A stretch of 64,000 nt of DNA from an uncultured Clostridia bacterium. Lineage in GTDB: Bacteria; Bacillota; Clostridia; Christensenellales; UBA1242. Both the position numbers and the translations under genes were made by a program. The DNA lies in contig CALVIT010000001.1 in the NCBI GenBank assembly GCA_944331845.1, forward strand, positions 48-64,047, given 5' to 3'. Within the stretch, counting starts at the first letter, position 1, and each line of letters starts with the position of its first letter. Shown in pieces: positions 2 through 63,699 of the stretch. Under the pieces are notes generated by a model. The model had not been told where the DNA came from. It worked only from the letters and a program-made list of their open reading frames with translations, and made no database searches.

Positions 2-1525
2 ATAACTTATACTTGTGCCGATACTGTTGAAGCAACTGTCCGCTGGACACCTATAGGTACATCTTCGAGTTCAACACAAAGATTTACTGGAACATTTGAT
101 GGTAATAATTATAGTATTACCTTTACTCAAACTATACATATCACAAGTGCTTCAGGGGATGTCTATGGCGGACTATTTGGATATACTAGTGGCGCTACAA
201 TTTCTAATCTAGGAGTCAACTGGGCAGGCACTGATAGTGTAGATATTGAGATAGAAGGGGAAACCAAATCATACACAGGATTAATAGTATCATCATTTTC
301 AAGTACTGTTTATGCTGGAGGAATCGCGGGGTATGCTGGGACCATCAGCAACTGCTACAACACGGGAGCAGTAACGGCGGAGTCTACTTCAAAGTATGCC
401 TTTGCCGGAGGGATCGCGGGGTATGCTGGGACCATCAGCAACTGCTACAACACGGGAGCAGTAACGGCGGAGTCTACTTCTTCTTATGTCTATGCCGGAG
501 GAATTTCGGGGGTGGCTGATTCAACAACCATCAGTAACTGCTACAATACGGGCGATGTGAATGCGGAGTCTACTTCAAAGTATGCCTGTGCCGGGGGAAT
601 CTCGGGGGAGATTTATGATACAACCATCAGTAACTGCTACAACACGGGAGCAATAACTTCTTATGTTTATGCCGGAGGAATCGCGGGGGGGGCTGATTCA
701 ATAACCATCAGCAACTGCTACAACACGGGTAGTGTGACTGCGACTGATTCAAATTTTACCGGTGCCGGGGGAATTTTGGGGTATGCTTATTATTCGACAA
801 CCATCCGAAACTGCTATAACACTGGAGCAATTACGTCTTTAGACAGTGTCGGAGGAATTTTGGGGTATGATGATTCTGATGCAACCATCAGCAACTGCTT
901 TAGTATAGGTACAGCACCTAGTGCAACAGGTAGTACAACGAAAGTAGGTGGTATAGTAGGAAGTGGCGGAACTGTAAATAACTGTTATCATAATTATGCT
1001 TCAATATATGAATATGAATCAAGTAATCAAATTACAGGTAAAGGTACATATGTAAGTAATCTTACAGATTATCTAGTATATTCAAGCGCTAATGCAAATT
1101 CAATCGTTAATAACTATACTCAAGGGTTTGGCGGTAATCAATGGTATACTGATGAGACCGAAGACTATTCTTGGGACTTTGATACAGTATGGGCGATAGA
1201 GAGCGGTATCAATGGTGGTTTACCATATTTAATAGCCATTCCGCCACAAGGAGAAGGGACACAAGGAAGTACTGTACAGTTAACCATTGAATATAGCGGG
1301 AGTGCTAAATTCTTAATAGTGGTAGAATATGGAGATAGTGCGTGTGCATTCACATATAGTGGAACATTTACATTTAATGTAGTAGGTGCAGAGTGTAAAG
1401 TAGCGATAATAGGATACAATGGTGAAAGCACATTGACATTGAATGATGCTTTACAAACAATAAGTAATAATACTTACACAATAAGTCTAGAGGATACTAA
1501 TAACATAGTACTAACATTAGGATAA
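2..1525 (+). CDS. GLUG-motif repeat surface protein, C-terminal part (5' end lies outside the window)
   Basis: The frame is open from the window edge to TAA at 1525. Upstream of the track start (512) the same frame reads WTPIGTSSSSTQRFTGTFDGNNYSITFTQTIHITSASGDVYGGLFGY, colinear with the module heads of the 58021 ORF. Repeated ISNCYNTGAV...YAGGI(A/S)G units match the GLUG motif type. Confidence 0.85.
   Translation: MTYTCADTVEATVRWTPIGTSSSSTQRFTGTFDGNNYSITFTQTIHITSASGDVYGGLFGYTSGATISNLGVNWAGTDSVDIEIEGETKSYTGLIVSSFSSTVYAGGIAGYAGTISNCYNTGAVTAESTSKYAFAGGIAGYAGTISNCYNTGAVTAESTSSYVYAGGISGVADSTTISNCYNTGDVNAESTSKYACAGGISGEIYDTTISNCYNTGAITSYVYAGGIAGGADSITISNCYNTGSVTATDSNFTGAGGILGYAYYSTTIRNCYNTGAITSLDSVGGILGYDDSDATISNCFSIGTAPSATGSTTKVGGIVGSGGTVNNCYHNYASIYEYESSNQITGKGTYVSNLTDYLVYSSANANSIVNNYTQGFGGNQWYTDETEDYSWDFDTVWAIESGINGGLPYLIAIPPQGEGTQGSTVQLTIEYSGSAKFLIVVEYGDSACAFTYSGTFTFNVVGAECKVAIIGYNGESTLTLNDALQTISNNTYTISLEDTNNIVLTLG
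323..480 (+). repeat. Exact 68-bp direct duplication (323-390 = 413-480, 90-bp period) inside the GLUG gene
   Basis: The string atcgcggggtatgctgggaccatcagcaactgctacaacacgggagcagtaacggcggagtctacttc occurs twice, 90 bp (30 codons) apart. Confidence 0.9.
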
Positions 1526-21746: not shown

Positions 21747-21776
21747 TTGACTAAAAAATAAATATTGTGATATACT
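21747..21776 (+). promoter_or_regulatory. Sigma-A promoter of GLUG paralog 2 (TTGACT, 18 nt, TGaTATACT extended -10)
   Basis: TTGACT at 21747-21752 and TATACT at 21771-21776 preceded by TGa. The same architecture and a 20-nt identical core occur at 57595-57633. Confidence 0.65.
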
Positions 21777-21829
21777 AAAATTAACGAACAAAAGAAAGGA
21801 GAGAGAAATTATGTTACAAGAGAACAAAA

Positions 21830-24640
21830 ATGCTAGGGGGGGGGGGGCGTACTAAGACCCAAGAAATAGGGCAAACTAGCGACAAAATAATACATAATGA
21901 ATTAACCAATAAAAAGGTAAATAGCATTAATGATAACAAAGCAATCAATATTAATGATTACAACAATATAGAGAATAATAACTCTAATAATATTGATAAA
22001 ATCTATAAAATCAATAAGGTAAATTATAAAAATTGTAATTCTAATATAGATACTTATAATAAATTAGTTACAAAAAAGAATAATACATTTATAAAAACTG
22101 CGCTACTTATCGTATCGTGGCTTTTTGTGGTTGTATTAAGTATCTTTGTTTTATGCAGTGCTAATGCAAATTCAAATATGAATAAATTAAATACTCCTAA
22201 CAATGCTATAGCGGTAGGTAGTACAACAGATGATGGAACAACTGCTTCAAGTTTTGCAGGCGGTACAGGAGACCCTGACGACCCATATCAAATAGCAACG
22301 CCTATGCAGTTAAGATTATTATCAATAGATAGTAGTTATTGGGCAGATAGTTTTATACAAACAGCGAATATAACTTATACTACTGATAGTTGGAATCCTA
22401 TAGGAAATGCAACAACCAAATTTACTGGTAATTTTAATGGTGGTGGATATGTCATTAAATTTGATAAACAAATTTCATTTAGTAATTTTACTGGGAAGTT
22501 ATATTCAGGTTTATTTGGATACGTGCAACAAGGAGAACTTCTTAATATTAGCGTCAAATGGGAATCAGGCATTAATGCATCTGTAGATTTGAGTGGTATT
22601 GATGACATTGAACCCGAAGATATGCAGAAAGCAGGGAATTATAATGCTTATGTAGGAGGTATTGTTGGATATGCAATCAATGAAAATATATATAATTGTC
22701 AACTTAGTGTAGGAGAGATTATTGTTCAAGGAAATGTAAATAATATCTATGGCGGTAGCGGATGGGTTTACGCTGGTGGGATTGTAGGTTATGCTGTTTC
22801 AAATTCAATAATTAAGGGGTGTAAGAATGCAGGTATGGTATCTGCCTCTGCTAATGTGAATCCCCCATCTTGGGATCCATATGGCGCTGAAAATGCATTT
22901 GCTTATTCTGGCGGGATAGTTGGCTATGGAGAATGTAATATGTACAATTGTTTAAATCTAGGTGAAACTGATGCTGATTCTCGTAGTACTACTTATGGGG
23001 AAAATTTGTATTCATATTCCGGTGGAATAGCAGGGGTGTTAAATGGTGGAGCAATTTATAATAGTTATAATGCTGGAAATTGTAGCGTGAGTGGAAGTTA
23101 TTATTTCTACCTTGGTGGTATAGCTTCTGTAGCAGAATCTGTTTCCATTGTTAATTGTTTTAATGTAGGTGGTTTTGAGCCTAGTGGCATTGCACTTATG
23201 GCAGGAATATCGGGGAATGCTTCAGGAATAATTCAAAATTGTTTTAATACAGGTGATGTATCTAATTATTATGGAGATTATGGTAATTCTTCGGGGATAT
23301 ACAGAGGAACGGCAACAGCTGAAAATTGTCAATTTAGTAGTCCTAATGAAGAAGACAATATAGATGGAACAACTTATAATGCTGATTTAACCTCTAATCT
23401 TTTTCAACAAGAAAACACTTTTACAAACAGCGAAAATAATATGTGGCATAGTTCTTCTTATTGGGATTTTACAAATGAGTGGAATATTGATACTCGTGAA
23501 GGCATTAGCGAGAGCGAAAGAGTTAATAGTGGATATCCATATCTTCGTGCTATGGAAGAATATGCTATCACCTACACAGCAGGCGAAGGTACTGGGGATG
23601 AGAAACTGATATATTACGGACTTAAATCTTCTTCGCCACAAGCAACATTACCTAATGGCACAGCAAGCGAAATAGAGTTTGTAGCACCCGATGGAATGGC
23701 ATTTGATTGTTGGGTTGATGAAAGTGCTCAAACATATCAAAGTGGGCAACAAGTTACTTTGACAGAGAATTTAGTACTAACTGCTCAATGGAAAGTACCT
23801 TATATCGACTTTAATATTGCATTAGATTTTAATGGCGGAAAAGGTGGTACTGTTACACAACTTGAAGTTAAACAATCAGTACCACAAAAAACACAATTTG
23901 CGACTAATGAACTACCTACAAGAAGCGGGTATACATTTAATGGGTACTATACTTCTCAAACTAATGGTACAATGTATGTAAATAGTGCTGGGCAAGTCGT
24001 AAAAACTAATACAAGTGATTACCTAACACAAATACCAACATTATATGCTCAATGGGTAGCAAATACTTATACTATTGTATTTAATTCAAATGGTGGACAG
24101 GGTCAAACAATGCAGTCAATGTCAATGACTTATGACACACCAAAGAATTTGACAAAGAACGCATATAGTAGAGATGACTACACATTCATAGGTTGGGCGA
24201 CAACTAAAGAAAGGGCAGACAGTGGGCAAGTAGACTATGTGGATGAAGCACAAGTTAATATTGTAACTACTAACAATGATACAATCACACTCTATGCGGT
24301 ATGGAAGTCAAACTATGTAGGAGTTACATTCAATATCACAACGAATGTAGGGGTTATATTCAATGTCTATGATAGTGATAATAACTTTGTACAACAAATA
24401 TATATAGGTAAGAGCAAAAATAATGCAGAGCAGACTATAAGTACACAATTATTAAAAGGTAAGACTTACACAATTAGAATGAGTGCGTTCTCTTCTGCTA
24501 ATATAACATTAGATAGTATTAATTCAATGTCTGGGGTATCAATGAGTGGTAGGACATTGACTATCATAGTTAATGAGAGCAGTAACACAATTACAATGAA
24601 TGTCAGCGGTTACACTTTCGGTAATGGTATCATTGTGTAA
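21830..24640 (+). CDS. Giant GLUG-repeat surface protein with Listeria-Bacteroides (Flg_new) repeats. The likely true start is ATG 21811, out of frame at the G12 tract.
   Basis: N/K-rich N-terminus, then the TM/signal anchor ALLIVSWLFVVVLSIFVLCSANA, GLUG-type units (AGGIVGYA...NC.N.G), and GYTFNGYY / YTFIGWAT Flg_new repeats. The RBS AAAGGAGAGAG serves ATG 21811, which reads MLQENKNARGGGAY-stop with 12 G. Confidence 0.85.
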   Translation: MLGGGGRTKTQEIGQTSDKIIHNELTNKKVNSINDNKAININDYNNIENNNSNNIDKIYKINKVNYKNCNSNIDTYNKLVTKKNNTFIKTALLIVSWLFVVVLSIFVLCSANANSNMNKLNTPNNAIAVGSTTDDGTTASSFAGGTGDPDDPYQIATPMQLRLLSIDSSYWADSFIQTANITYTTDSWNPIGNATTKFTGNFNGGGYVIKFDKQISFSNFTGKLYSGLFGYVQQGELLNISVKWESGINASVDLSGIDDIEPEDMQKAGNYNAYVGGIVGYAINENIYNCQLSVGEIIVQGNVNNIYGGSGWVYAGGIVGYAVSNSIIKGCKNAGMVSASANVNPPSWDPYGAENAFAYSGGIVGYGECNMYNCLNLGETDADSRSTTYGENLYSYSGGIAGVLNGGAIYNSYNAGNCSVSGSYYFYLGGIASVAESVSIVNCFNVGGFEPSGIALMAGISGNASGIIQNCFNTGDVSNYYGDYGNSSGIYRGTATAENCQFSSPNEEDNIDGTTYNADLTSNLFQQENTFTNSENNMWHSSSYWDFTNEWNIDTREGISESERVNSGYPYLRAMEEYAITYTAGEGTGDEKLIYYGLKSSSPQATLPNGTASEIEFVAPDGMAFDCWVDESAQTYQSGQQVTLTENLVLTAQWKVPYIDFNIALDFNGGKGGTVTQLEVKQSVPQKTQFATNELPTRSGYTFNGYYTSQTNGTMYVNSAGQVVKTNTSDYLTQIPTLYAQWVANTYTIVFNSNGGQGQTMQSMSMTYDTPKNLTKNAYSRDDYTFIGWATTKERADSGQVDYVDEAQVNIVTTNNDTITLYAVWKSNYVGVTFNITTNVGVIFNVYDSDNNFVQQIYIGKSKNNAEQTISTQLLKGKTYTIRMSAFSSANITLDSINSMSGVSMSGRTLTIIVNESSNTITMNVSGYTFGNGIIV
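21836..21847 (+). repeat. Poly-G tract (12 G) in the 5' coding region
   Basis: Counted directly: G at 21836-21847. It lies between the RBS-linked ATG (21811) and the long ORF. Confidence 0.95.
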
Positions 24641-38052: not shown

Positions 38053-38230
38053 AAGTTAATACAATAGTAATATTAATTATCAAAAAGTCTAATTTATTAA
38101 GTTATATGTAATATTTCTTGAAAAAAAATTATTTTATGTTATAATAATATGTAGATATAAAATTCTTATTTGTTTTTATATGTGTCATTAAATTTTATCT
38201 CGTATTTACTAGGTAGTTTAGAGGTGGTTG

Positions 38231-39880
38231 ATGTTATATAATTATTTTAAAAATTTAAATAGACTGTCACATTTTGTTTTAGTACTCATGATAATAATGT
38301 TTTCTTTTATATTTTTTGCTGGATGCCAAAGCACTGATAAAAAAGAATCATATTTAGATACGACGTATTTTTCAAATATTGAATGTGAATATGATGCTAC
38401 TAAAGATGAAACTGAAATTATTTGGAATGCAAAATTTACAAATAATACTATTTATAATTTTGAAAGTTTTGAAATAACTTTTAAATTGTATAATGATGGA
38501 GAGTTAATTGACACTAAATCTTGCAATTATGATTTTGAATTAAATCACGGGAAGGAATACATAGGAAAATTTCGTTTTTTTTATAATGGAGAAATTGATT
38601 CTGTTAAGTATGTTTCGTGGATAGCAAATTATAGTTCATTTTGGGATACATACAAAATTTGGATTATTGTAACGCTTATAATATCTTTAATTGCTTCAAT
38701 AATTTATATTATTATTATGATTGTTCAAGATTTAGAATTGTATGAGACATATGATTATGTATGTGATAATTTGTGGACTTTACTGATTTTATTGTTACCA
38801 TTTTGTGGTTCAATTTATGGGGTTATAGAATCTTCTTGGGTATCAAGTCTCGTAGTCTTAGCGGGTTTATGTATTACAATACTTATTGCATTGTTTGCTC
38901 ATTTTATTAAGTATTTAATTCAAGAAGTGGATTGGGGCGTAGGTAGAGGTTATAATTACTATCAATATACGAATAATAGTAAAAATAATAAAGATAAATC
39001 TTTTAATAATATAAGTGAGATTAAAGATTGTGTTAATGATTACGACAAATTACAACAATTTACAGTTGAAGAATTGAGAGATTATTGTAGAAATGAAGGA
39101 ATCAAAGGTTTTTCTAATCTTAACAAAAATCAATTAATAGATTTAATTATGTTATCAAATATAGACAATGTAAATAAATCAAAAAAAACAGATAAAGGCA
39201 ATGCTCATCATAAAGTAATAACATTCAATGATATTATTGGACTTGATGAAGCAAAGAATGCTTTTAGAGAAAAAGTAGTATTAGCATTTAAACACAAGGA
39301 TTTGTATGATAAGTACAATAAAAAGGCTGGGGGTGGTATTTTATTATATGGGTTACCTGGTACAGGTAAAACAATGTTTGCTGAGGCGGCTTCTAATGAG
39401 TCGGATTCTTTGTTTATTCCTATCAAATGTTCTGATATTAAATCAAAATGGTATGGGGAATCGGAGAGTAATGTTCAAAAGATTTTTGATAAGGCAAGAA
39501 AGGCAAAAAGGGCAATTATATTTTTTGACGAATTTGAAGCTATAGGGGCTAAAAGAACAGATAATGTAGATAATGGAAATAATGATTTGGTACCACAAAT
39601 ACTTGCTGAAATGCAGGGAATTAATTCAACAAATCAAGATAGTATAATTTTAGTTATCGCTGCAACAAACAAACCATGGGCTATTGATAGTGCATTTTTA
39701 AGACCTGGTAGATTTGATGAGAAAATATACATACCTTTACCTGATTTAATTGCTAGAGAACATATTTTTAAATTAAAATTAGATGGTATACCTCAAGAAA
39801 ATTTGGATTATAACTATTTAGCGGAAATAACAGAAGGGATCAACACTACAGACATTGTAGAATACAGTGATAAAAAATGA
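38231..39880 (+). CDS. Membrane-tethered AAA+ ATPase (classic Vps4/katanin/FtsH-like clade), truncated within the lid domain by a frameshift
   Basis: Lipoprotein-like signal FIFFAGC, an extracytoplasmic domain of about 100 aa, TM helices, a Rho_N/SAP-like segment FTVEELRDYCRNEGIKGFSNLNKNQLIDLI, Walker A GLPGTGKT, Walker B IIFFDEFE, and SKWYGESE. The ORF stops at 39878-39880 right after an A6 run. Confidence 0.8.
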   Translation: MLYNYFKNLNRLSHFVLVLMIIMFSFIFFAGCQSTDKKESYLDTTYFSNIECEYDATKDETEIIWNAKFTNNTIYNFESFEITFKLYNDGELIDTKSCNYDFELNHGKEYIGKFRFFYNGEIDSVKYVSWIANYSSFWDTYKIWIIVTLIISLIASIIYIIIMIVQDLELYETYDYVCDNLWTLLILLLPFCGSIYGVIESSWVSSLVVLAGLCITILIALFAHFIKYLIQEVDWGVGRGYNYYQYTNNSKNNKDKSFNNISEIKDCVNDYDKLQQFTVEELRDYCRNEGIKGFSNLNKNQLIDLIMLSNIDNVNKSKKTDKGNAHHKVITFNDIIGLDEAKNAFREKVVLAFKHKDLYDKYNKKAGGGILLYGLPGTGKTMFAEAASNESDSLFIPIKCSDIKSKWYGESESNVQKIFDKARKAKRAIIFFDEFEAIGAKRTDNVDNGNNDLVPQILAEMQGINSTNQDSIILVIAATNKPWAIDSAFLRPGRFDEKIYIPLPDLIAREHIFKLKLDGIPQENLDYNYLAEITEGINTTDIVEYSDKK

Positions 39881-40020: not shown

Positions 40021-40304
40021 ATCTAAGACTTAATATATTAATAATTTTTGTATTTTTTATTATAAAAATTTTTCATACATAATTTATTTTAATTTGTTTA
40101 TAGGGAGATTATAATCAAAGTGCTTAAATATCGTACAATTTGTATGTAAAAAAAAAAGAGTATAACTGTAATTTTGTGCAGGTATACTACTTTTTTTATA
40201 TATTAAAATTAAAGTCTAAAATTATTTATAATTTAATATAACTTATATAAGTTTAATTAATTTTGCTCTTTTCATTATGTTATATAATTTCATAGATTTA
40301 AATT

Positions 40305-40820
40305 TTAATTATTTAAAGTGATATTTTTCTTTTTTGTTGTGCGTTTTTTTGTAGTGCTTTTGGGGGTAGAGATGTTAGATGACTTATTGCTTATAGAATT
40401 AGAAGAAGGAGTGTCATTAGATATTGTCAAAGTTATATTTTGTGGCGAGGTAGTGGCATTTTGTTTGTTACTTATATCCTTAGAATCAACTGATGACTCT
40501 TCGCTTTTTGTAGTTCGTGTATCACTTGTTATATTATCTTCTAATGTCGTATTGACGCTATCTTTTGCATTTTCGTTTCTCATTGAATCAGTTTTAGATT
40601 TTTTCGCTTTTTGGGGAAGCAAAGATAATTGCCCTTTTTTGATTAGCGTGTATGCTAGGAACCAAAGACCCGCTAGTCCTATTATTGTGTAAATGAATCG
40701 ACTAAAAAAATGTGATTGTGTTCCAAATATACCTGCGATTAAATCAAATTGAAATACACCTATACAAAACCAATTTATAGCACCGACAATTATAATTATC
40801 AAACTAATAAAATTAAACAT
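40305..40820 (-). CDS. DUF378 family membrane protein with an S/T/K-rich C-terminal tail
   Basis: The AGGTGA RBS favours the internal start MFNFISLIIIIVGAINWFCIGVFQFDLIAGIFG (DUF378 signature GAINW...FQFDL). The track's upstream extension has no support. Confidence 0.7.
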   Translation of the reverse strand: MFNFISLIIIIVGAINWFCIGVFQFDLIAGIFGTQSHFFSRFIYTIIGLAGLWFLAYTLIKKGQLSLLPQKAKKSKTDSMRNENAKDSVNTTLEDNITSDTRTTKSEESSVDSKDISNKQNATTSPQNITLTISNDTPSSNSISNKSSNISTPKSTTKKRTTKKKNITLNN

Positions 40821-40966
40821 ATTATCACCTACATTAAGTTTTGACATAAATATTTTTTTTAAACAAAATTGTAGGGAATTCGTAGGCTTTGTGTGCTTTT
40901 GTAATGGTAAATAACAAAATCGCATTGATTTACATATATTGATAAAGAAATTTAAGTGAGGTTTTG

Positions 40967-42070
40967 ATGAATTTTTGTAATTATAATAAATGTAATTGTT
41001 GTTGTAATCAATCAAATGTTGATAAGATAATTAAATGTCAAAAAGGTGTTAATGGGGCGACAGGTGCGACAGGGCCTGCAGGTCCTACCGGTCCAATGGG
41101 ACCAACGGGTCCAACAGGCCCTGCTACAATCACTGTGGGGACTATTACACTTCTACCTGCTGGGTCTACTCCAACAGTTACAAATAGCGGAACTAATCAA
41201 GTTGCGGTATTTGATTTTGGCATACCTGAGAGCGTTACGGGCCCAACGGGGGCAACGGGGGCGACAGGTCCAACAGGAGCTACAGGTGAGCAAGGTGAAC
41301 AAGGGGTACAAGGGATACAAGGCGAAGTGGGACCAACGGGCGCTACGGGACCATCAGGTAACAATGTATTTAACCCTTATGAAATATATGTAAGAAGCAA
41401 TACTGTTGGGGGAATAGGAACTCAAAGCAATCCATTACCTAGTATAGAAGACGCATTACAAGTTGTCGCTAATAATGGCACAATATATGTCTACGATGGC
41501 ACATATCCTATAGATACAACTAATACCATATCAAAGAATAATATCACATTGACTGCTAAACCAAATGCGACAATATTATTGACTTCTAATGTAGTTCCTT
41601 TCTTAATAACAGGCAGTGGAAATACGCTTGAAGGATTCACAATGACAAGTGACAATGTATATCCTAATGAGTTCATACAGATAGGTGGGAATAATAATGT
41701 CATACGGCACAACATAATTTATGGTCCTACGCAAAGTGGAAGTTCAGACACTTGGGTAGCGAATAGGGGTGTAGTGACTCAAGCGAGCACGCAAAATAAT
41801 TGGATAGATGACAATATCTTCTACTCTTTAAGACAAAGTGGATACTTGAATCCTAATTCTACAGGATATATAACTCATAATGTTGTATTTAATACAAGGG
41901 GTTGGGTAGTAGACAGTGCATTATTTCAATTCTCTGGGAATTCTTGGGGTGAACCAGAAAATGCTGTTGATATTGCTCTATTGAGTGGTACGACTTCGGG
42001 TGTGCCTTATGCTTCAGTCGCAGATTTACAACAAAATAATAGTAATGCAAATATAAGCGACCAAAGATAA
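40967..42070 (+). CDS. Collagen-like triple-helix repeat protein with a C-terminal right-handed beta-helix-like domain
   Basis: Cys-rich N-terminus (NKCNCCCNQ). Two G-x-y runs (GATGATGPAGPTGPMGPTGPTGP and GPTGATGATGPTGATGEQGEQGVQGIQGEVGPTGATGPSG) flank a spacer of about 35 aa. The C-terminal part carries parallel beta-helix-like repeats. Confidence 0.8.
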   Translation: MNFCNYNKCNCCCNQSNVDKIIKCQKGVNGATGATGPAGPTGPMGPTGPTGPATITVGTITLLPAGSTPTVTNSGTNQVAVFDFGIPESVTGPTGATGATGPTGATGEQGEQGVQGIQGEVGPTGATGPSGNNVFNPYEIYVRSNTVGGIGTQSNPLPSIEDALQVVANNGTIYVYDGTYPIDTTNTISKNNITLTAKPNATILLTSNVVPFLITGSGNTLEGFTMTSDNVYPNEFIQIGGNNNVIRHNIIYGPTQSGSSDTWVANRGVVTQASTQNNWIDDNIFYSLRQSGYLNPNSTGYITHNVVFNTRGWVVDSALFQFSGNSWGEPENAVDIALLSGTTSGVPYASVADLQQNNSNANISDQR

Positions 42071-55879: not shown

Positions 55880-57436
55880 TTATTTATCGCTTGTTTGTAT
55901 TTGTGTTTGTGGAAGTTCTTTATTCCTTTGTTTTGGTTTGGAGAATTCAAGTAACATACTCTTAAAGTCTATCACTTTAAATATTACTGATAATAATATA
56001 AAGCATACTGCACCGCTGATACTTCCAAATGCTAATGCAAAAAATTTAGGGCAGAAGGCGTCAAAGATATTAAATGTGAATATTGTAAATAGTAGACTTG
56101 GTACTGCTAGACAACTCATTACAAATATTTTTTGTATAATATTTGTTTTGATTTGCAATTTCTTTTGAATTAATCTTATATTCAATGCACTTGATATGGT
56201 CATACAAGCACCTGTGCCTACTATTAATGATAAGACACCTATAAGTTGTGTTGTTGTTAAAATAATTATAATTAGGGCGATAGCACCAATTACATAGTTA
56301 ATAAATGATTTCGATTCCATACCTAGTGCATTAAGAACAGTTGATGAAATATTTGATAGTGCTAATGGTATCATTAACCAAGCGGAGTAGAGAAGAAAGA
56401 GTCCTGCTCTCTCATTATTATACACAAAGAGCCCTATGTCTTGCCACATTCCCATATAGAGCGGTATTATCATCATTGATATGAATAGTGAGAATGTGAA
56501 CGAGATATTGATTTGTGAGGTAACTGTGTCTTTGTTTTGTTGTGCATATTGTGAAGATAATTCCGGCAGAAGCACCATAGCAAGCGACCCTACAAGTGTA
56601 GAAGGGACAAATAGTAGTGGCATAGTCATACCAACTGCGATACCAAATTCTGCTAACGCCTGTTCGTTACTTAGTCCTGCTAGCACTAATTGCATAGGTA
56701 TGACTATAGCGATTATTGGATGTAGAACGCTTGTTGCTACTCTAACTCCTGTGATAGGGGTAGCACTTTTTAGTATCTTGCGGTATTGTAGGTGCGGACT
56801 TGCTAATCTATTTCCTTTGTAGAAATAGTAGAAGATAACCATCAGTGCAGAGAATAGACAAGCGATTGATAGAGATATACCCGCTACGACTCCGCTAGAT
56901 AGAGATTGCCCTACGGTGTAAGCGATAATGAAGAAGAATAAAATTCGAAGCACTTGCTCGACAAATTCGCTTAAGCCGACAATGAAATAGTTTTTTTTGC
57001 CCCACAAGGCACCACGAAACGAAGAATATATGGCGGAGAAAATAACAGAAGGAAGCAAAGTTAGAATAATTATTACAGTTCTAGGGTCGGCAAAAATTTT
57101 CTCTAGTGGAGTATGAAATACGAAAATCAGTAGGCATAGAATGATAGACAGTATGAGAGATATCACTAATGTAGCAGTTGTAGCGCGATTAATGGCTTGA
57201 TTATCCTTCTTTGTCTCATAAATAGCGGTGAACTTCGATAGGGTCAAAGGTAGTCCACTCGATACAAGCATCATAAGCACACCTATGATAGACAGGGCGA
57301 CTTGATAAATGCCTAGCATTTCTGCGCCCATTTCCCACGACAAATATATTCTAAATACAAAACCTAATATTCTTGTTAAGATTGAGAATATTGTTATTAA
57401 CGCGACCGCTTTAATTAAATCACTGAATTTTATCAT
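55880..57436 (-). CDS. MOP-superfamily polysaccharide / lipid II flippase (SpoVB/MurJ-like)
   Basis: About 14 TM helices. The N-terminus LITIFSILTRILGFVFRIYLSWEMGAEMLGIYQVALSIIGVLMMLVSSGLPLTLSKF matches the SpoVB / polysaccharide-biosynthesis-protein pattern. Confidence 0.7.
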   Translation of the reverse strand: MIKFSDLIKAVALITIFSILTRILGFVFRIYLSWEMGAEMLGIYQVALSIIGVLMMLVSSGLPLTLSKFTAIYETKKDNQAINRATTATLVISLILSIILCLLIFVFHTPLEKIFADPRTVIIILTLLPSVIFSAIYSSFRGALWGKKNYFIVGLSEFVEQVLRILFFFIIAYTVGQSLSSGVVAGISLSIACLFSALMVIFYYFYKGNRLASPHLQYRKILKSATPITGVRVATSVLHPIIAIVIPMQLVLAGLSNEQALAEFGIAVGMTMPLLFVPSTLVGSLAMVLLPELSSQYAQQNKDTVTSQINISFTFSLFISMMIIPLYMGMWQDIGLFVYNNERAGLFLLYSAWLMIPLALSNISSTVLNALGMESKSFINYVIGAIALIIIILTTTQLIGVLSLIVGTGACMTISSALNIRLIQKKLQIKTNIIQKIFVMSCLAVPSLLFTIFTFNIFDAFCPKFFALAFGSISGAVCFILLSVIFKVIDFKSMLLEFSKPKQRNKELPQTQIQTSDK

Positions 57437-57603: not shown

Positions 57604-57633
57604 TTGACTAAAAAGTTTTATATGTGGTATACT
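57604..57633 (+). promoter_or_regulatory. Sigma-A promoter of GLUG paralog 3 (TTGACT, 18 nt, TGgTATACT)
   Basis: TTGACT at 57604-57609 and TATACT at 57628-57633 preceded by TGg. Same layout as 21747-21776. Confidence 0.65.
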
Positions 57634-57691
57634 AGCAATAATAAACAAAACAAAGGAGAGAGTGTATTATGTTACAAGAGATGAAAACGCT

Positions 57692-57702
57692 GGGGGGGGG
57701 GG
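57692..57702 (+). repeat. Poly-G tract (11 G) in the 5' coding region
   Basis: Counted directly: G at 57692-57702, 21 nt after the RBS-linked ATG at 57669. Confidence 0.95.
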
Positions 57703-58020
57703 CGTTCTAAGACCCAAGAAATAGGGCAAAATAACACAAAAATAATACATAATGACTTAACTAATAATAAGTTAAATAACAATCAAAGAAACGATATAAT
57801 CAACGATATTGACAACTCAAATTGTGAGAAAAAAACACATACAACTAACATAAATAATGAGAATCAAGCAAAAAGTGTCAGTGAAATTGATTATAAGGAT
57901 ACTTATAATGAAGTTAGAACTCTAAATACAATAAATACAAATAATAAAATAAATAAAAAACTAAATAATGCACACAATATTACCGAGATTGAATTTGCTA
58001 GAGACGGTGCAGATTATAGT

Positions 58021-61000
58021 ATGCGAGCAAACAATGGAGGTAATGAAATGCGCAAACAAGATACATACAACGAAATAATGGATAGAAGAGTAGAAGAGAC
58101 TAGTATAGACAACAATAGTGGTCTTTTTGTGGATACAACAAATGTAGGAAAATATACTAAAAAAGAAGAAAAGGTCTTGTCTAGAGTACAAGCATTACAC
58201 AAGCGAGCAGGACACATACGCTCAAGGGTAGGGCAAAGTGCTAGTATAGGTGTACAACACACAAATACCTTTATGCGCTCTACAGTACAATTAGTATTGT
58301 GGTTATTAGCATTTGTCATGAGTCTAACAATGGTATGTTGTCTTAGTACAAATAAAGGCACTTTGAATGAAGTGAACGCAGTTAGTGGGACTGCTATCTC
58401 TACAGTGGATGAATTGAAAGCGGTGGCAAATAACTTAAGTGGTAGTTATTACCTAGCGAATGACATAACAGTAACTGACAGCACTTGGACCCCTATAGGC
58501 ACATCTTCAAGTAGTACATTTAAAGGCACATTTGATGGTAATGGCTATAGTATCACCTTTACTCAAACTATACATATCACAAGTTCTTCAGGGTCTGCTT
58601 ATGGCGGATTATTTGGTTATCTTACTAGTGCCACAATTAAGAATTTGGGTGTCATATGGTCAGAAGATAGCATAGATATTAATATAAATGGCGAAACAGA
58701 ACCATACACAGGCTTAGTAGTATCTTCTAAATCCAGTGTCCATGCCGGGGGGATCGTGGGGTATGCTTCTGTTTCAATCATAAGTAACTGCTACAATATG
58801 GGTGCAGTGAGTGCAGAATCGGCATCTTCTACTGCCTATGCAGGCGGAATTGTGGGAAATAATAATAATTCTTCAATCATCAGCAACTGCTACAACACGG
58901 GTGCAGTAAAGGCGACTGCTTCTGCTTCTTCAAAGACTGCTTATGCAGGCGGAATCGTAGGGGATTCAGATAATCCCATCAGCAACTGCTACAACACAGG
59001 TGCAGTGAGTGCAGAATCGGCATCTTCTACTGCCTATGCAGGCGGAATCGTGGGGGATGCGGGTAATCCCATCAGCAACTGCTACAACACAGGTGCAGTA
59101 AAGGCGACTACTTCTGCTTCTTCAAAGACTGCTTATGCAGGTGGCATTGCGGGGAATGGTGGTTATGGTACAACCATCAGCAACTGTTTTAGTATAGATC
59201 CTAACCTTAGTGATAGCATTAATACATCACCTAGTGCAGAAGTGAATAAAGCAGTCAATCTTACAAATGTAGGTGGTATAGTAGGAAGTGGCGGTACGGT
59301 AAATTATGGTTATCATAATTATGTAAGTTTAGATAATATCAATAAAGGTACCTATGTAGAGACCCTTGCTAGTTTCCTTGTATATTCAAATAATAATGCT
59401 AGTATAATAATTGATAATTATAAGTTTGGTTTTACAGTTAATACTATTAATTATGGATGGGACTCTGCTTGTACTTGGAATTTTGACATTATATGGAAAG
59501 TAAATACTGATGCTAGTACAAGTAATACTCAACCTTTAATTATAAATATGAGAATTCCACAATTTAGTGGAGAGGGGACCGCAGATTCACCATACATAAT
59601 TTCCAATTCTGACGATTTAAAGTCGTTGTCAAGTGCAGTTAGTGTGGGGCTCTTGAATGATTCCTATTATAGAGTAGAGTCACAAAATCTAAATAAAGTG
59701 ATAGAAATAACTGACAATACCTGGACCCCTATAGGTACATCGTCAAGTAGTGCATTTACTGGAACATTTGATGGTAATGGGCACAGTATCACTTTTACGC
59801 AGACTATATATATAACAAGCAGTTCAGGTGATGTCTATGGCGGACTATTTGGATATGCTAGTGATGCGACAATATCTAATTTAGAAGTTAACTGGGCAGG
59901 TACTAACACGATTAGTAATTATACAGGTCTGATAGTATCTTCTACAACTTCTACTGCCTATGCTGGGGGAATAGCGGGGTATGGTGAGAAAATTAGTAAT
60001 TGTTATAGCACGGGAGCAGTGACTGCGACTTCTACTCATACTTCTTCTAATGCCTATGCAGGAGGAATCGCGGGGTATTGTGGAACCATCAATAGTTGCT
60101 ACAATGAGGGAGCAGTGACTGCGATTTCCACAACTTATGATGCCTATGCAGGTGGAATTGCAGGAAAAGTGGTAGACCTTATATGTAATTGCTACAACAC
60201 GGGCACAGTGACTGTGACTGACTCAAGGTATGCCTATGCCGGAGGAATTTCTGGCAAGGCTTCGTCTTCAACAACAATCATTAACTGCTACAACACTGGC
60301 GCAGTGGATGCAACTTCTACATCTTCTTTTGTCTATGCAGGCGGAATCGTGGGATATGCAGAAGAGGCAACCAGTAGCAACTGCTACAACACTGGCGCAG
60401 TGGATGCAACTTCTACATCTTCTTCTGTCTATGCAGGCGGAATCGTGGGGTATGCAAAAGAAGCAACCAGTAGCAACTGTTTTAGTATAGATCCTAACCC
60501 TGATGATGATATTGATACAACACCTAGTGGTAAAACTGTAGGTGCTATAGTAGGAAGTGGCGGTACAGTAAATTATTGTTATCATAATTATTCATCAATT
60601 AATACAACAACTACTGGAACTGCAACGATTTATAATTCAAATTTGGCAGGTTTAGTAAAACAAAAAGATGAGTTTCTTGCATTAACTTGGGACCCTATTT
60701 ATCTTTGGAACTTCAACATTGTATGGGAAGTAAATACTGATGATAGTACAAGTACTACTCAACCATTGATAATTAATATAAGGGTTCCATTTACAGGAGC
60801 AGGTACTGAAGAATCTCCATATATAATATCCGATTCTGATGATTTAAAGTCATTGTCATATGGAATCAACTTGGGACTCTGGAATGATTCGCATTTTAGA
60901 GTTGAGTCACAAAATCAAAATAAAGTGATAGAAATAACTGACAATACCTGGACCCCTATAGGTACATCGTCAAGTAGTGCATTTGAAGGCACTTTTGATG

Positions 61001-63699
61001 GCAATGGCCACACCGTTAAATTTGCTCAAACTATACAGATTACATGTACCTATGGCGGATTGTTCGGATATACTAAGGGGGCTGCAATCAAGAATTTAGG
61101 GGTCAACTGGGCAGGTACTAATAAGGTCAGTGAGTATACAGGCCTAGTAGTATCTCCTACTTACAGGAATATCTATGTAGGTGGTATCGCAGGATATTCT
61201 GATTCAACAACATTCAATAACTGCGACATCACGGGTAGCATTACTGGTTCTTCGAATGGATATGTAGGTGGAATTGTTGGGCAGGCCATTATTGATACAA
61301 CCATCAGTGACTGTAACAACAAAGGGACAGTAAGTTCGATTTCTCCTGATGATTCTGCCGGTGTAGGAGGAATCGCGGGGTATGCTTCTTCTACAATCAT
61401 CAGCCACTGCGACAATATTGGTAATTTGTTTGCGACTGCTCGTAATGCCTATGCAGGTGGAATTTCTGGCAATGCTTCGTCTTCAACAATCAACAACTGC
61501 AAAAATACAGCGGAAGTAGTTGCAGAATCCACTGATCGTAGTTCTTCTTATGCCTATGCAGGAGGAATCGCGGGGTATGCTTATTCTTCAACCATCAGCG
61601 TATGTGATAACACAGGTGCAGTTAGTGCAGATTCTAATTCAAAAGATAGTGATGCCTATGCCCATGCTGGAGGAATTGTGGGAGGTGCTCCTTCTACAAC
61701 CATCAGTGACTGTAACAACACACCTGTAGATACAAATACAGTGACTGCAAATTCTTATAGTTCTTATCGTTCTAACTATTCTGGGTTCAAATATTCTTCT
61801 GCCTATGCTGGCGGAATTGTGGGGCGGGATGGAAACATCATCAACTGTAACAACACAGGGACAGTAAAGGCAGATGCGTCTAAGCCTGTTAATTATTATG
61901 ACGTTTCCCCTTTTGCCTATGCAGGTGGAATTTGTGGGAGTGATGGAATCATCAGTAATTGTCATAATGAAGGGGCAGTGAGTGCAACTGGTGATTCTGC
62001 TCGTATTTATACAGGCGGTATCGTGGGATATAGTAGAAAAACAATCAGTAACTGCTATAATATAGGCGTTGTAAGTGTAGATGGGAGTTCTTCTGCCGAT
62101 GTCGGGGGAATCGCGGGGTATGCTTATTCTTCAACAATCAACAACTGCTACAACACTGGTTCAGTGACTGCGACTACTCCTTCTGCTACTAATGCCGGGG
62201 GGATCGTGGGGTATGCTTCTTCTTCGACCATAAGTAACTGCCACAATAAGGGTGCAGTGGATGCGACTTCTACTTATATTTCTTCTAATGCCTATGCAGG
62301 AGGAATCGCGGGGTATGCTTCTTCTTCTTCTTCTATTACCATCAGCAACTGCTATAACACAGGTGCAGTGAAAGCGACTACAACTGATTCTTCTGCTAGA
62401 GCTCATGCCGGGGGGATAGTGGGGTATGCTTCTTCTTCTATTACCATCAGCAACTGCTATAACACAGGTGATGTAACCGTGACTATTAATGATTTTTCTG
62501 CTAAATCTAATACTGCCAATGCTGGTGGAATTGCAGGGTATGCTTCATCTTCAACAACCATTAGCAATTGCTACAATATAGGTGCAGTGAAAGCAACTGC
62601 GACTCGTACTTCTTCTAATGCCTATGCAGGCGGAATCGTTGGGCAAAATGCAAACATCAACAACTGTTACAACACAGGTAAAGTGACTGTGTCCGCATAT
62701 TCTTCTGCCTATGCTGGGGGAATTGTGGGAAGTGGCGGAACAATCAGCAACTGCTTTAGTATAGATTCTAACCTTAGTGATAGCACTAATACCGCACCTA
62801 GCGCTACTGGAAGTACAAAAAATGTAGGTGGTATCGTAGGAAATAGTGGGACTGTAAATAATAGTTATCATAATTATAGTGGTTTAAGTACTACAACTGG
62901 TTATGTACTAAATTTGGAGAACTTCTTAAAATATCCAAATAATAACAATAGTATTAATTCTAATGTAATTCAAGATAATTTCACATTAGGTTTTGGCACA
63001 TTATCTAATGGGACTTATCAATATCAATGGGATGATACTTCACCTTGGGACCTTATGAGTGTATGGGGCATAGATACTCGCACGGATATAAATGAAGCAG
63101 ATAGAATAAATGGTGGGTTACCATATTTGAAGTGGTTTGAAGAAGACTATATAACTTATGTTGTAACAAATGGCGATACCACTGAAGAAAAACGTGTATT
63201 TTGCGGAATAAAGGGGACAGTGACTTCGGTAATTGTTGTTAGTGTACAAAATGCTGGGTTAACGATTCCAAATGGTACAATATTTAGTAATTGGGTAGAT
63301 GTGGAAGGGAAGACCTATAATGTAGGAGATACAATACCTTTCACAGAAGGTATAGTATTAAATGCAGTATTAATTGAAATGCCAATGGTAACATTCAATG
63401 TTACAAATAATGTGTGCGCAATATTAAATGTTTACGATAGTAATGATAATTTCGTACAACAAGTATTTATTGATAAGAATTCTTCCCAACAAACTATAAG
63501 TACATATTTATTGAAGGGGGAAGTTTATACTGTAAGGATAAGTGTATTCTATACTGCTAATATAACATTGGATACTGATAATTCAATGACTGGAGTATCA
63601 ATGAGTGGTAGGACATTGACATTCGAAGTTAGTGATAGTGGTAATACAATTACAATGCAGATAACAGGCTTTAGCGGGGGGAATGGTATTGTGGTTTAG
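58021..63699 (+). CDS. Giant (at least 1892 aa) three-module GLUG-repeat surface protein. The frame is open upstream to 57685 and the likely true start is ATG 57669, out of frame at the G11 tract.
   Basis: The frame of 58021 has no stop back to 57685 and encodes RSKTQEIGQNNTKIIHNDL, homologous to the N-terminus of the 21830 ORF. TM anchor VQLVLWLLAFVMSLTMVCCL. Three modules, each with a TWTPIGTSSSS.F.GTFDGNG head and many NCYNTGAV...AYAGGIVGY units. The C-terminal domain is shared with the 21830 product. Confidence 0.9.
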   Translation: MRANNGGNEMRKQDTYNEIMDRRVEETSIDNNSGLFVDTTNVGKYTKKEEKVLSRVQALHKRAGHIRSRVGQSASIGVQHTNTFMRSTVQLVLWLLAFVMSLTMVCCLSTNKGTLNEVNAVSGTAISTVDELKAVANNLSGSYYLANDITVTDSTWTPIGTSSSSTFKGTFDGNGYSITFTQTIHITSSSGSAYGGLFGYLTSATIKNLGVIWSEDSIDININGETEPYTGLVVSSKSSVHAGGIVGYASVSIISNCYNMGAVSAESASSTAYAGGIVGNNNNSSIISNCYNTGAVKATASASSKTAYAGGIVGDSDNPISNCYNTGAVSAESASSTAYAGGIVGDAGNPISNCYNTGAVKATTSASSKTAYAGGIAGNGGYGTTISNCFSIDPNLSDSINTSPSAEVNKAVNLTNVGGIVGSGGTVNYGYHNYVSLDNINKGTYVETLASFLVYSNNNASIIIDNYKFGFTVNTINYGWDSACTWNFDIIWKVNTDASTSNTQPLIINMRIPQFSGEGTADSPYIISNSDDLKSLSSAVSVGLLNDSYYRVESQNLNKVIEITDNTWTPIGTSSSSAFTGTFDGNGHSITFTQTIYITSSSGDVYGGLFGYASDATISNLEVNWAGTNTISNYTGLIVSSTTSTAYAGGIAGYGEKISNCYSTGAVTATSTHTSSNAYAGGIAGYCGTINSCYNEGAVTAISTTYDAYAGGIAGKVVDLICNCYNTGTVTVTDSRYAYAGGISGKASSSTTIINCYNTGAVDATSTSSFVYAGGIVGYAEEATSSNCYNTGAVDATSTSSSVYAGGIVGYAKEATSSNCFSIDPNPDDDIDTTPSGKTVGAIVGSGGTVNYCYHNYSSINTTTTGTATIYNSNLAGLVKQKDEFLALTWDPIYLWNFNIVWEVNTDDSTSTTQPLIINIRVPFTGAGTEESPYIISDSDDLKSLSYGINLGLWNDSHFRVESQNQNKVIEITDNTWTPIGTSSSSAFEGTFDGNGHTVKFAQTIQITCTYGGLFGYTKGAAIKNLGVNWAGTNKVSEYTGLVVSPTYRNIYVGGIAGYSDSTTFNNCDITGSITGSSNGYVGGIVGQAIIDTTISDCNNKGTVSSISPDDSAGVGGIAGYASSTIISHCDNIGNLFATARNAYAGGISGNASSSTINNCKNTAEVVAESTDRSSSYAYAGGIAGYAYSSTISVCDNTGAVSADSNSKDSDAYAHAGGIVGGAPSTTISDCNNTPVDTNTVTANSYSSYRSNYSGFKYSSAYAGGIVGRDGNIINCNNTGTVKADASKPVNYYDVSPFAYAGGICGSDGIISNCHNEGAVSATGDSARIYTGGIVGYSRKTISNCYNIGVVSVDGSSSADVGGIAGYAYSSTINNCYNTGSVTATTPSATNAGGIVGYASSSTISNCHNKGAVDATSTYISSNAYAGGIAGYASSSSSITISNCYNTGAVKATTTDSSARAHAGGIVGYASSSITISNCYNTGDVTVTINDFSAKSNTANAGGIAGYASSSTTISNCYNIGAVKATATRTSSNAYAGGIVGQNANINNCYNTGKVTVSAYSSAYAGGIVGSGGTISNCFSIDSNLSDSTNTAPSATGSTKNVGGIVGNSGTVNNSYHNYSGLSTTTGYVLNLENFLKYPNNNNSINSNVIQDNFTLGFGTLSNGTYQYQWDDTSPWDLMSVWGIDTRTDINEADRINGGLPYLKWFEEDYITYVVTNGDTTEEKRVFCGIKGTVTSVIVVSVQNAGLTIPNGTIFSNWVDVEGKTYNVGDTIPFTEGIVLNAVLIEMPMVTFNVTNNVCAILNVYDSNDNFVQQVFIDKNSSQQTISTYLLKGEVYTVRISVFYTANITLDTDNSMTGVSMSGRTLTFEVSDSGNTITMQITGFSGGNGIVV
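60283..60474 (+). repeat. Tandem 96-bp (32-codon) duplication inside the GLUG gene, about 96% identical
   Basis: Units 60283-60378 and 60379-60474 (NCYNTGAVDATSTSS[F/S]VYAGGIVGYA[E/K]EATSS) differ at 4 nt. Confidence 0.9.

Follow-up and report, generated by a model that had tools for sequence, protein, structure and literature searches.

A poly-G tract near the start of a giant GLUG-repeat protein gene in an uncultured Clostridia bacterium: a probable slipped-strand switch captured OFF

The 11-G tract at the 5′ end of a gene for a predicted cell-surface protein of about 2000 residues, here called paralog 2, is probably a classical slipped-strand (contingency) switch captured in its OFF state (probability about 0.75). 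The gene lies in the window, the whole stretch of 64,000 nucleotides that was analysed, together with paralog 1, a gene with the same promoter and leader and a 12-G tract. An earlier note on this DNA had offered three readings, namely that both loci were captured OFF, that homopolymers were systematically overcalled, or that expression depends on transcriptional or ribosomal slippage on the G run. The first is favoured here by the presence of in-frame, +1, and +2 states within one cassette family and by the existence of ON alleles. Observed directly are the anatomy of the 5′ region, the coding status of the tail that follows the tract, the diversity of tract length and phase among copies and strains, and the natural ON alleles. 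The following elements of paralog 2 are relevant.

57604..57633, + strand: promoter, with TTGACT, an 18-nt spacer and a TG-extended TATACT (10 of 12 consensus positions, TG before the -10 box)
57653-57662, + strand: Shine-Dalgarno sequence AAGGAGAGAG, read directly, 6 nt 5′ of ATG 57669
57669-57671, + strand: start codon ATG
57669..57710, + strand: 13-codon reading MLQEMKTLGGGAF and stop TAA, the product of the present 11-G state
57692-57702, + strand: poly-G tract of 11 G, proposed as the slipped-strand switch; 10 or 13 G would be in frame
57703..63699, + strand: gene body of 1998 codons and stop, with tail, anchor, GLUG repeats and C-terminal domain
58036..58050, + strand: internal GGAGGT, 6-nt spacer and in-frame ATG 58048, a possible tract-independent start
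58279..58344, + strand: single hydrophobic segment STVQLVLWLLAFVMSLTMVCCL, a predicted N-in signal anchor

The ribosome-binding site (RBS), ATG 57669, the 11 G, and the TAA at 57708-57710 closing a reading of 13 codons had all been claimed by the earlier note, and all are read directly in the sequence. This reading (ATG TTA CAA GAG ATG AAA ACG CTG GGG GGG GGG GCG TTC TAA) consists of the gene's first eight codons and a frameshifted end, in phase +1 relative to the long frame, and the tract occupies codons 9-12 of the gene. The long frame (KRWGGGRSKTQEIGQ...) is open back to 57685, as claimed, following the stop TGA 57682-57684, and runs for 2004 codons; it reads KRWGGGRSKTQEIGQNNTKIIHNDL, and its first ATG, GTG, or TTG is at 58021. 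Frame reading also bears out that 10 or 13 G would join ATG 57669 to this frame, the loss of one G or the gain of two giving MLQEMKTLGGGRSKTQEIGQ and a full-length protein beginning MLQEMKTLGGGR. Tracts of 10 or 13 G yield about 2000 codons, 11 G a stop after 13 codons, and 12 G a stop after 19, a one-unit change in the tract toggling between the full-length ORF and early termination. The G runs of the window are far beyond chance, those of at least eight G giving 10 overlapping matches at three sites versus 0.12 expected from shuffles, and no run of six or more C occurs within the window. At 11 and 12 G, the tracts of both paralogs exceed the length, about 7-9 G/C, from which mononucleotide runs are expected to be hypermutable.

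The tail of paralog 2 upstream of 58021 is coding, because the 112 codons from 57685 to 58020 contain no stop, versus 10 and 26 in the other two frames, and because a 95%-identical strain (L008) retains the same frame. None of 20,000 shuffles left this stretch open. In L008, the frame persists despite many replacements and an in-frame 6-nt indel, the tail frame having no stops in the window and in L008, versus 7-23 in other frames. Conserved codons are thus orphaned upstream of 58021, as the earlier note held, although their number is 112, with 106 of these after the tract, and not about 105.

Both window paralogs share a common plan, with a short leader, a Gly run, an N/K-rich tail, one strongly hydrophobic segment, GLUG repeats, and a C-terminal domain, to which paralog 1 adds Listeria-Bacteroides repeats. 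The N/K-rich tail of paralog 2 has 192 aa, the tails in this plan ranging over roughly 90-190 residues. Against a Pfam cut-off of 20.5 bits, GLUG (PF07581) is matched with 134.9 bits in paralog 2 (E = 1.9e-40) and with 22.7 bits in paralog 1. The hydrophobic segment STVQLVLWLLAFVMSLTMVCCL has a best 19-residue Kyte-Doolittle window of 2.4, versus at most 1.47 elsewhere, and is preceded by 30 aa with five K/R and no D/E and followed by 30 aa with two K/R and three D/E; with this predicted topology, the product of paralog 2 may be surface-exposed. The C-terminal residues, about 105 in number, are conserved among family members (…FNITTNVGVIFN…ITGFxGGNGIVV-stop), being present at window 63385-63696 and 24320-24637 as well as in L003, L004, L005, P0222, P0275, P0303, and P0357. 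Neither the tail nor this domain has a match in Pfam even at E = 1, and the latter may be a putative wall-association or sorting domain.

A third family gene (1-1525) runs off the start of the window and contains an internal, in-frame G8 (685..692, + strand) within a GLUG repeat (GGIAGGAD). At the equivalent A-G-G-I repeat motif, a G14 lies inside a related gene in L001 (765-778) and L002 (782-795), where it is one G too long and the gene is split into two called ORFs in two independent samples. Such G runs within GLUG repeats may act as a further switch inside the gene, or may be a site of truncation. The neighbours of the family genes in the window are ordinary chromosomal genes (mnmG, tilS, valS, holB, ricT, and the rplJ leader). 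Adjoining paralog 2 is a polysaccharide flippase (MurJ/Wzx-like) gene, intact in the window (55880-57436, - strand, 518 aa); in two sister strains (L007 11098-12652 and L008 2639-4193), it has a 2-nt deletion, CAATCTCTATCT becoming CAATCTATCT, and gene calling yields two ORFs, of 179 and 320 aa, in its place. The longest A/T homopolymer of the window is an A10 run at 40148-40157, between the ORFs at 38228-39880 and 40305-41015.

About 170 nt are common to both paralogs and comprise the promoter, AAGGAGAG, ATG TTA CAA GAG, the G run, and CGTWCTAAGACCCAAGAAATAGGGCAA. In both window genes, the cassette has the order promoter, RBS, 8-9 codons, and then the homopolymer, and the Shine-Dalgarno sequence AAGGAGAGAG is invariant among aligned copies. 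The pattern TTGACTAAAAA-N8-TGTGRTATACTA is found within the window only at the two paralogs, versus none expected, and the promoter element recurs in L002, L003, L004, L007, L008, L011, L013, and L014. The homology claimed between the two paralogs extends over promoter, leader, and the first 25-30 or so codons after the tract; beyond these, the similarity of the tails decays. In paralog 1, the corresponding elements are as follows.

21747..21776, + strand: promoter, the same cassette as in paralog 2
21811..21855, + strand: RBS-proximal ATG and 14-codon reading at 12 G, with stop TAA 21853-21855
21836-21847, + strand: poly-G tract of 12 G, the number that is in frame with ATG 21830; ATG 21811 would need 11 G
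21830..24640, + strand: present ORF, read from the second ATG (MLGGGGRTKTQEIGQ...) and 936 aa long, containing GLUG and Listeria-Bacteroides repeats

With 11 G, its in-frame state, paralog 1 gives the junction GGGRTKTQEIGQ, the same as in paralog 2, in agreement with the earlier note. The accompanying claim that both tracts are offset by +1 is correct for paralog 2; for paralog 1, it applies only relative to the RBS-proximal ATG, since exactly 12 G puts the second ATG 21830 (ATG CTA G12 CGT) in the frame of the 936-aa ORF. Paralog 1 is OFF for its main start, whereas its second ATG is in frame, and the gene may be less than completely OFF. This second ATG is a candidate start only, because it lies 26 nt from the RBS; this type of ATG is absent in L013 and out of frame in L014, and it was not adopted as the true start. 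The ortholog contig L011 (97.6% identical, paralog-1 locus) stops inside the tract, its phase being unreadable.

Relatives were taken from ENA and Logan contigs found through protein searches and exact-protein look-ups. All sequences compared are metagenome assemblies, and each tract length is therefore the choice of an assembler. Exact scans with the 21-mer after the tract gave no match in the genome and JGI metagenome contig collections, and scans with the promoter pattern gave none in the JGI metagenome contigs, the genome and JGI metagenome collections scanned thus being without the cassette of this lineage. Exact-protein look-ups with the called sequences of both window paralogs gave no entry. 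The profile of the C-terminal domain retrieved only P0067 in a word-indexed search and one locus, L004, in a genome-contig search. An exhaustive search of representative proteins over all 522 alignment columns was dominated by generic GLUG proteins, and family members among the representatives were chosen by C-terminal domain, anchor motif, and N-terminus. Contigs 100% identical to the window came from run ERR4096348 (L010) and from the sample behind ERZ28614525. The loci and their phases relative to the RBS-proximal ATG are listed below.

L009: same strain, 100% identical; G11 again; +1, counted as not independent
L010: same strain, 100% identical; contig ends in the promoter
L008: 95% identical, paralog-2 locus; ATGCAACAAGAAATGAAAAATGCTA-G12; +1, although the second ATG is in frame
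L007: 96-97% identical; contig ends at the cassette, phase unreadable
L013: other contig from the same sample as L009; ...GCTA-G13-CGTTCTAAG; +2
L014: family member; ...AATGCT-G11-CATTCTAGG; +2
L001/L002: family member in two samples; paralog-1-type cassette, G12 and internal G14; +1
L003: related species, about 29% GC; three family genes with G14, G12 and G14; in frame, -1 and +1
L004: MAG with the 576-aa gene of L003; G15; +1
L005: related species; G15; +1
L006, 60-90: distant member; A11 after ATG AAA TAC GAA AC, where others have poly-G; in frame

Among cassette paralogs, tracts vary from G11 to G15 between conserved flanks. The same gene differs between samples, the 576-aa gene having G12 in L003 versus G15 in L004, and the same locus differs between strains, paralog 2 having G11 in the window versus A+G12 in the 95%-identical L008, the flank of which is different by 2 nt. 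The A11 at the same position in L006 indicates that a homopolymer, not G as such, is kept. Three contigs of sister or identical strains (L007, L010, and L011) end at or inside the cassette, as is expected if reads disagree there or if the cassette is repeated. A further G14 (L003 15983-15996) lies about 100 nt from a contig end, outside any family gene. It is preceded by a terminator-like hairpin and followed by DNA of higher GC content, and may stem from an artefact of assembly or chemistry.

Cassette sequences are also mosaic, with promoter-spacer variants swapped among window paralogs 2 and 1, L008, and L002, and recombination between loci thus adds to the variation. Comparison of L004 2480-2700 with L003 2960-3100 and 5500-5640 revealed that the promoter and leader of the 764-aa gene of L003 are joined in L004 to the 576-aa gene of L003; this join resembles the outcome of a deletion or a conversion involving two copies of the cassette, at or close to the G run. 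In the related species, a palindrome, (T)AGATAG-N4-CTATCT(A), with conserved stems and a variable loop, stands straight after the tract (L003 3070-3087, 5563-5580, and 9801-9818; L004 2590-2606; L005 2379-2395). It corresponds to a hairpin of 6-8 bp (z about -3 in two of four cassettes, to -3.07) and includes the TAG stop codons that end the two OFF frames; no such palindrome is present in the window cassettes. In the +1 state, all cassette types have a 0-frame stop 1-2 codons after the tract.

Natural ON alleles were identified in this family. At L003 3029..5323, a 764-aa protein is called from the RBS-proximal ATG through Gly5, and the database proteins P0222, P0275, P0357, and P0313 start with M-x7-8-GGGG(G), the Gly run being read into the tail. 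P0222 reads MIEKNKILGGGGVDSYLSTSNN, and its tail resembles the conceptual tail of the OFF locus L003c, being near-identical over about 120 residues; judged by this match, P0222 is the ON allele of a tail seen OFF at L003c. OFF alleles are represented by window paralog 2, L003b, L003c, L004, L005, L013, and L014. An ON allele of the window locus itself was not found, nor was one that is read from the RBS-proximal ATG in an MLQE-type cassette; wherever an MLQE-type allele has its long ORF intact, this ORF begins at the second ATG (MLGGGG[RH]...). The earlier note had suggested that homologs without the tract, starting at the equivalent of 58021, would speak against a switch. P0236 and P0228 are called from that position, yet their DNA (L013 and L014, respectively) has both the tract and an open tail upstream, and thus they are not homologs of this kind.

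According to the switch reading, transcription would proceed from a strong, conserved promoter, and ribosomes would load at AAGGAGAG and initiate at ATG 57669. With 10 or 13 G, translation would pass through Gly3 or Gly4 into RSKTQEIGQ... and produce a cytoplasmic tail, one anchor, and extracellular GLUG repeats (ON), whereas with 11 G, as sequenced, it would stop after 13 codons (OFF), and with 12 G after 19. The gain or loss of a single G in replication would flip the state in a heritable and reversible manner. Family members sharing the 5′ cassette would be set independently, and a population would thereby contain varied combinations of large surface proteins. We infer that switching occurs at high frequency within a clone and that its benefit lies in immune, phage, or niche evasion.

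Among the alternatives, a miscalled tract survives best, although it is rather unlikely. The true tract would then have 10 (or 13) G and the gene would be intact, the frameshift being a homopolymer artefact of short-read metagenome assembly. The window does come from a metagenome-derived contig of 64,083 bp, runs of 11-15 G are difficult to call, and L007, L010, and L011 break at the cassette. A uniform overcall by one G, if corrected, would bring 7 of 11 loci into frame; the same correction, however, would throw the four ON proteins and the in-frame locus at L003 3029 into frameshift without restoring the frame of L013, L014, or L003b. A miscall confined to the paralog-2 tract is conceivable. 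In addition, the second assembly of the same strain (L009, 100% identical), the only second look in that strain, agrees with the window on 11 G. Polymerase stutter at mononucleotide runs tends toward shortening, not lengthening, which would also count against a miscall.

The earlier note had stressed a systematic +1 offset in both genes. Phase relative to the RBS-proximal ATG was tallied for 11 independent, DNA-verified 5′ cassettes from this strain, sister strains, and a related species, L003b being read manually; seven were +1, one was in frame, and three were +2. The nominal excess of +1 (7/11, P = 0.039) includes the two window loci that prompted it, and falls to 5/8 (P = 0.36) when only OFF loci are considered; the four ON proteins thin it further. 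A systematic offset, which had stood at 5/5 and then at 7/9, was weakened when L003a, L003b, L013, and L014 were counted. L003 alone has an in-frame G14, a -1 G12, and a +1 G14 in one contig. The +1 offset shared by the window paralogs is most likely a coincidence, because the third paralog from the same sample, L013, is +2 (G13) and because the tally without the two window loci, 5/9, gives P = 0.14; the emphasis on a common offset is therefore unsupported. The poly-G switches of C. jejuni show insertion/deletion biases of 6:1 to 24:1, which reverse with tract length (PMC3401435). With such a length-dependent bias, an uneven split of +1 and -1 among OFF alleles needs no special mechanism.

It is a long shot that +1 is a preferred resting state, decoded at a low, tract-length-dependent level by RNA polymerase or Gly-tRNA slippage, with decoding from the second ATG in paralog-1-like cassettes; this would place a graded dial atop a heritable switch, on a portable and recombining cassette. 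Programmed recoding, with +1 as the normal state, is very unlikely too; the full-length protein would then arise because RNA polymerase slips, or because tRNA-Gly shifts by +1 in the ribosome on the G run, and tract length would tune its level. The +1 phase is the most frequent one (7 of 11 5′ cassettes), it is shared by the window and L008 despite a 2-nt difference in the flank and a difference of one G, a long G run would permit re-pairing of Gly-tRNA in any frame, and the hairpin of related-species cassettes directly follows the tract. Phase is not conserved, however, with 0, +1, and +2 occurring among the 11 cassettes and +2 even in the same sample, and the excess of +1 is gone statistically once the two prompting loci are left aside. 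After the window tracts, no structure stands out, RNA folding being no better than in shuffles (z = -1.65 and -0.81) and Rfam giving no match at either window cassette, and the ON alleles use plain in-frame decoding. Some background slippage on the G run is plausible.

A start downstream of the tract is very improbable as the whole explanation. The real gene would then begin at ATG 58021 or at ATG 58048, the reading from 57669 would be a remnant or would serve as a regulatory leader peptide, and production of the surface protein would not depend on the tract. Gene callers do place the starts of P0236 and P0228 at the 58021 equivalent, and ATG 58048 lies in frame behind GGAGGT and a 6-nt spacer. 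This consensus Shine-Dalgarno sequence and ATG belong to a 21-nt block, AACAATGGAGGTAATGAAATG (NNGGNEM), identical in three paralogs (window 58030-58050, L013 3010-3030, and L014 1546-1566), the tails of which otherwise diverge around it; the block may have a function, a suggestion kept tentative because the surrounding DNA is conserved too. ATG 58048 is thus a possible, candidate start of an N-terminally shortened protein. Against a downstream start, the 112 upstream codons stay open where 10-26 stops are expected, the indels between strains are in frame, the tail is translated in ON alleles, paralog 1 has no Met between tract and membrane anchor, and promoter and RBS are placed for ATG 57669; the conserved open tail would be left unexplained. 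Such a start can, moreover, coexist with the slipped-strand switch, as the internal Shine-Dalgarno sequence and ATG 58048 could make the OFF state leaky through a shorter isoform. Pseudogene decay was rejected, because 2004 codons are open and the locus is retained in sister strains.

Homopolymer contingency loci are textbook examples of phase variation in Campylobacter, Helicobacter, Neisseria, and Haemophilus, and the switch proposed for paralog 2 can be compared with several known systems. In the vlp genes of M. hyorhinis, a promoter poly-A between the -35 and -10 boxes acts on transcription. Like the present family, vlp genes form a size-variable, repetitive, surface multigene family with a near-identical 5′ region, a homopolymer, and independent switching, whereas here the homopolymer lies in coding sequence and acts on frame, and the proteins are unrelated. 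H. influenzae lic1 and S. pyogenes sclB have tetra- or pentanucleotide repeats just after alternative start codons, and in lic1 two ATGs in different frames lead to more than two expression levels. The repeat immediately after the start codon is common to these genes and to the present ones, in which it is a homopolymer instead, and the two-ATG layout of paralog 1 (21811 and 21830, in two frames) resembles that of lic1, use of the second ATG being here a candidate. The genes dnaX and prfB and those of IS-element transposases, known for transcriptional slippage or programmed frameshifting, keep both their out-of-frame layout and a stimulatory element from homolog to homolog. Common to them and the present cassette is a slippery homopolymer with a 0-frame stop close behind it; in contrast to them, phase varies among copies of the present cassette, and no stimulatory element is found in the window cassettes.

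A close likeness in mechanism is with C. jejuni, where poly-G/C genes such as cj1139, cj0031, and capA also carry an intragenic 5′ G homopolymer in an AT-rich genome, with one-G ON/OFF steps, many independently set loci, surface-related products, and a length-dependent insertion/deletion bias (PMC3401435). The modal tract in C. jejuni is G9 (PMC3401435), versus the longer G11-G15 found here, and its products are glycosyltransferases and capsule and LOS enzymes, versus giant GLUG-repeat proteins; the present host is an uncultured, low-GC, Clostridia-like gut bacterium, and its tract is located within a conserved promoter-RBS-leader cassette common to paralogs. In N. meningitidis, hmbR and hpuA likewise have a poly-G in the frame of a surface protein, with both ON and OFF isolates, but they are single-copy genes for Gram-negative outer-membrane receptors, unlike the present genes, and without a 5′ cassette shared by paralogs (PMC3786947). 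Literature searches gave no description of phase variation or homopolymer contingency loci in GLUG-repeat proteins, and the sample accessions led to no relevant paper. The mechanism itself is known; new are the gene family, the bacterium that carries it, and the portable cassette.

Genes for very large GLUG-repeat surface proteins appear to be switched one by one throughout a family, by means of a shared 5′ cassette, which is also exchanged between loci. Automatic annotation of metagenome-derived genomes of this type will systematically truncate or split these genes, as illustrated by the 1892-aa call in the window, which misses 112 codons. The lineage probably varies its surface stochastically, with a bearing on its immune, phage, or niche interactions.
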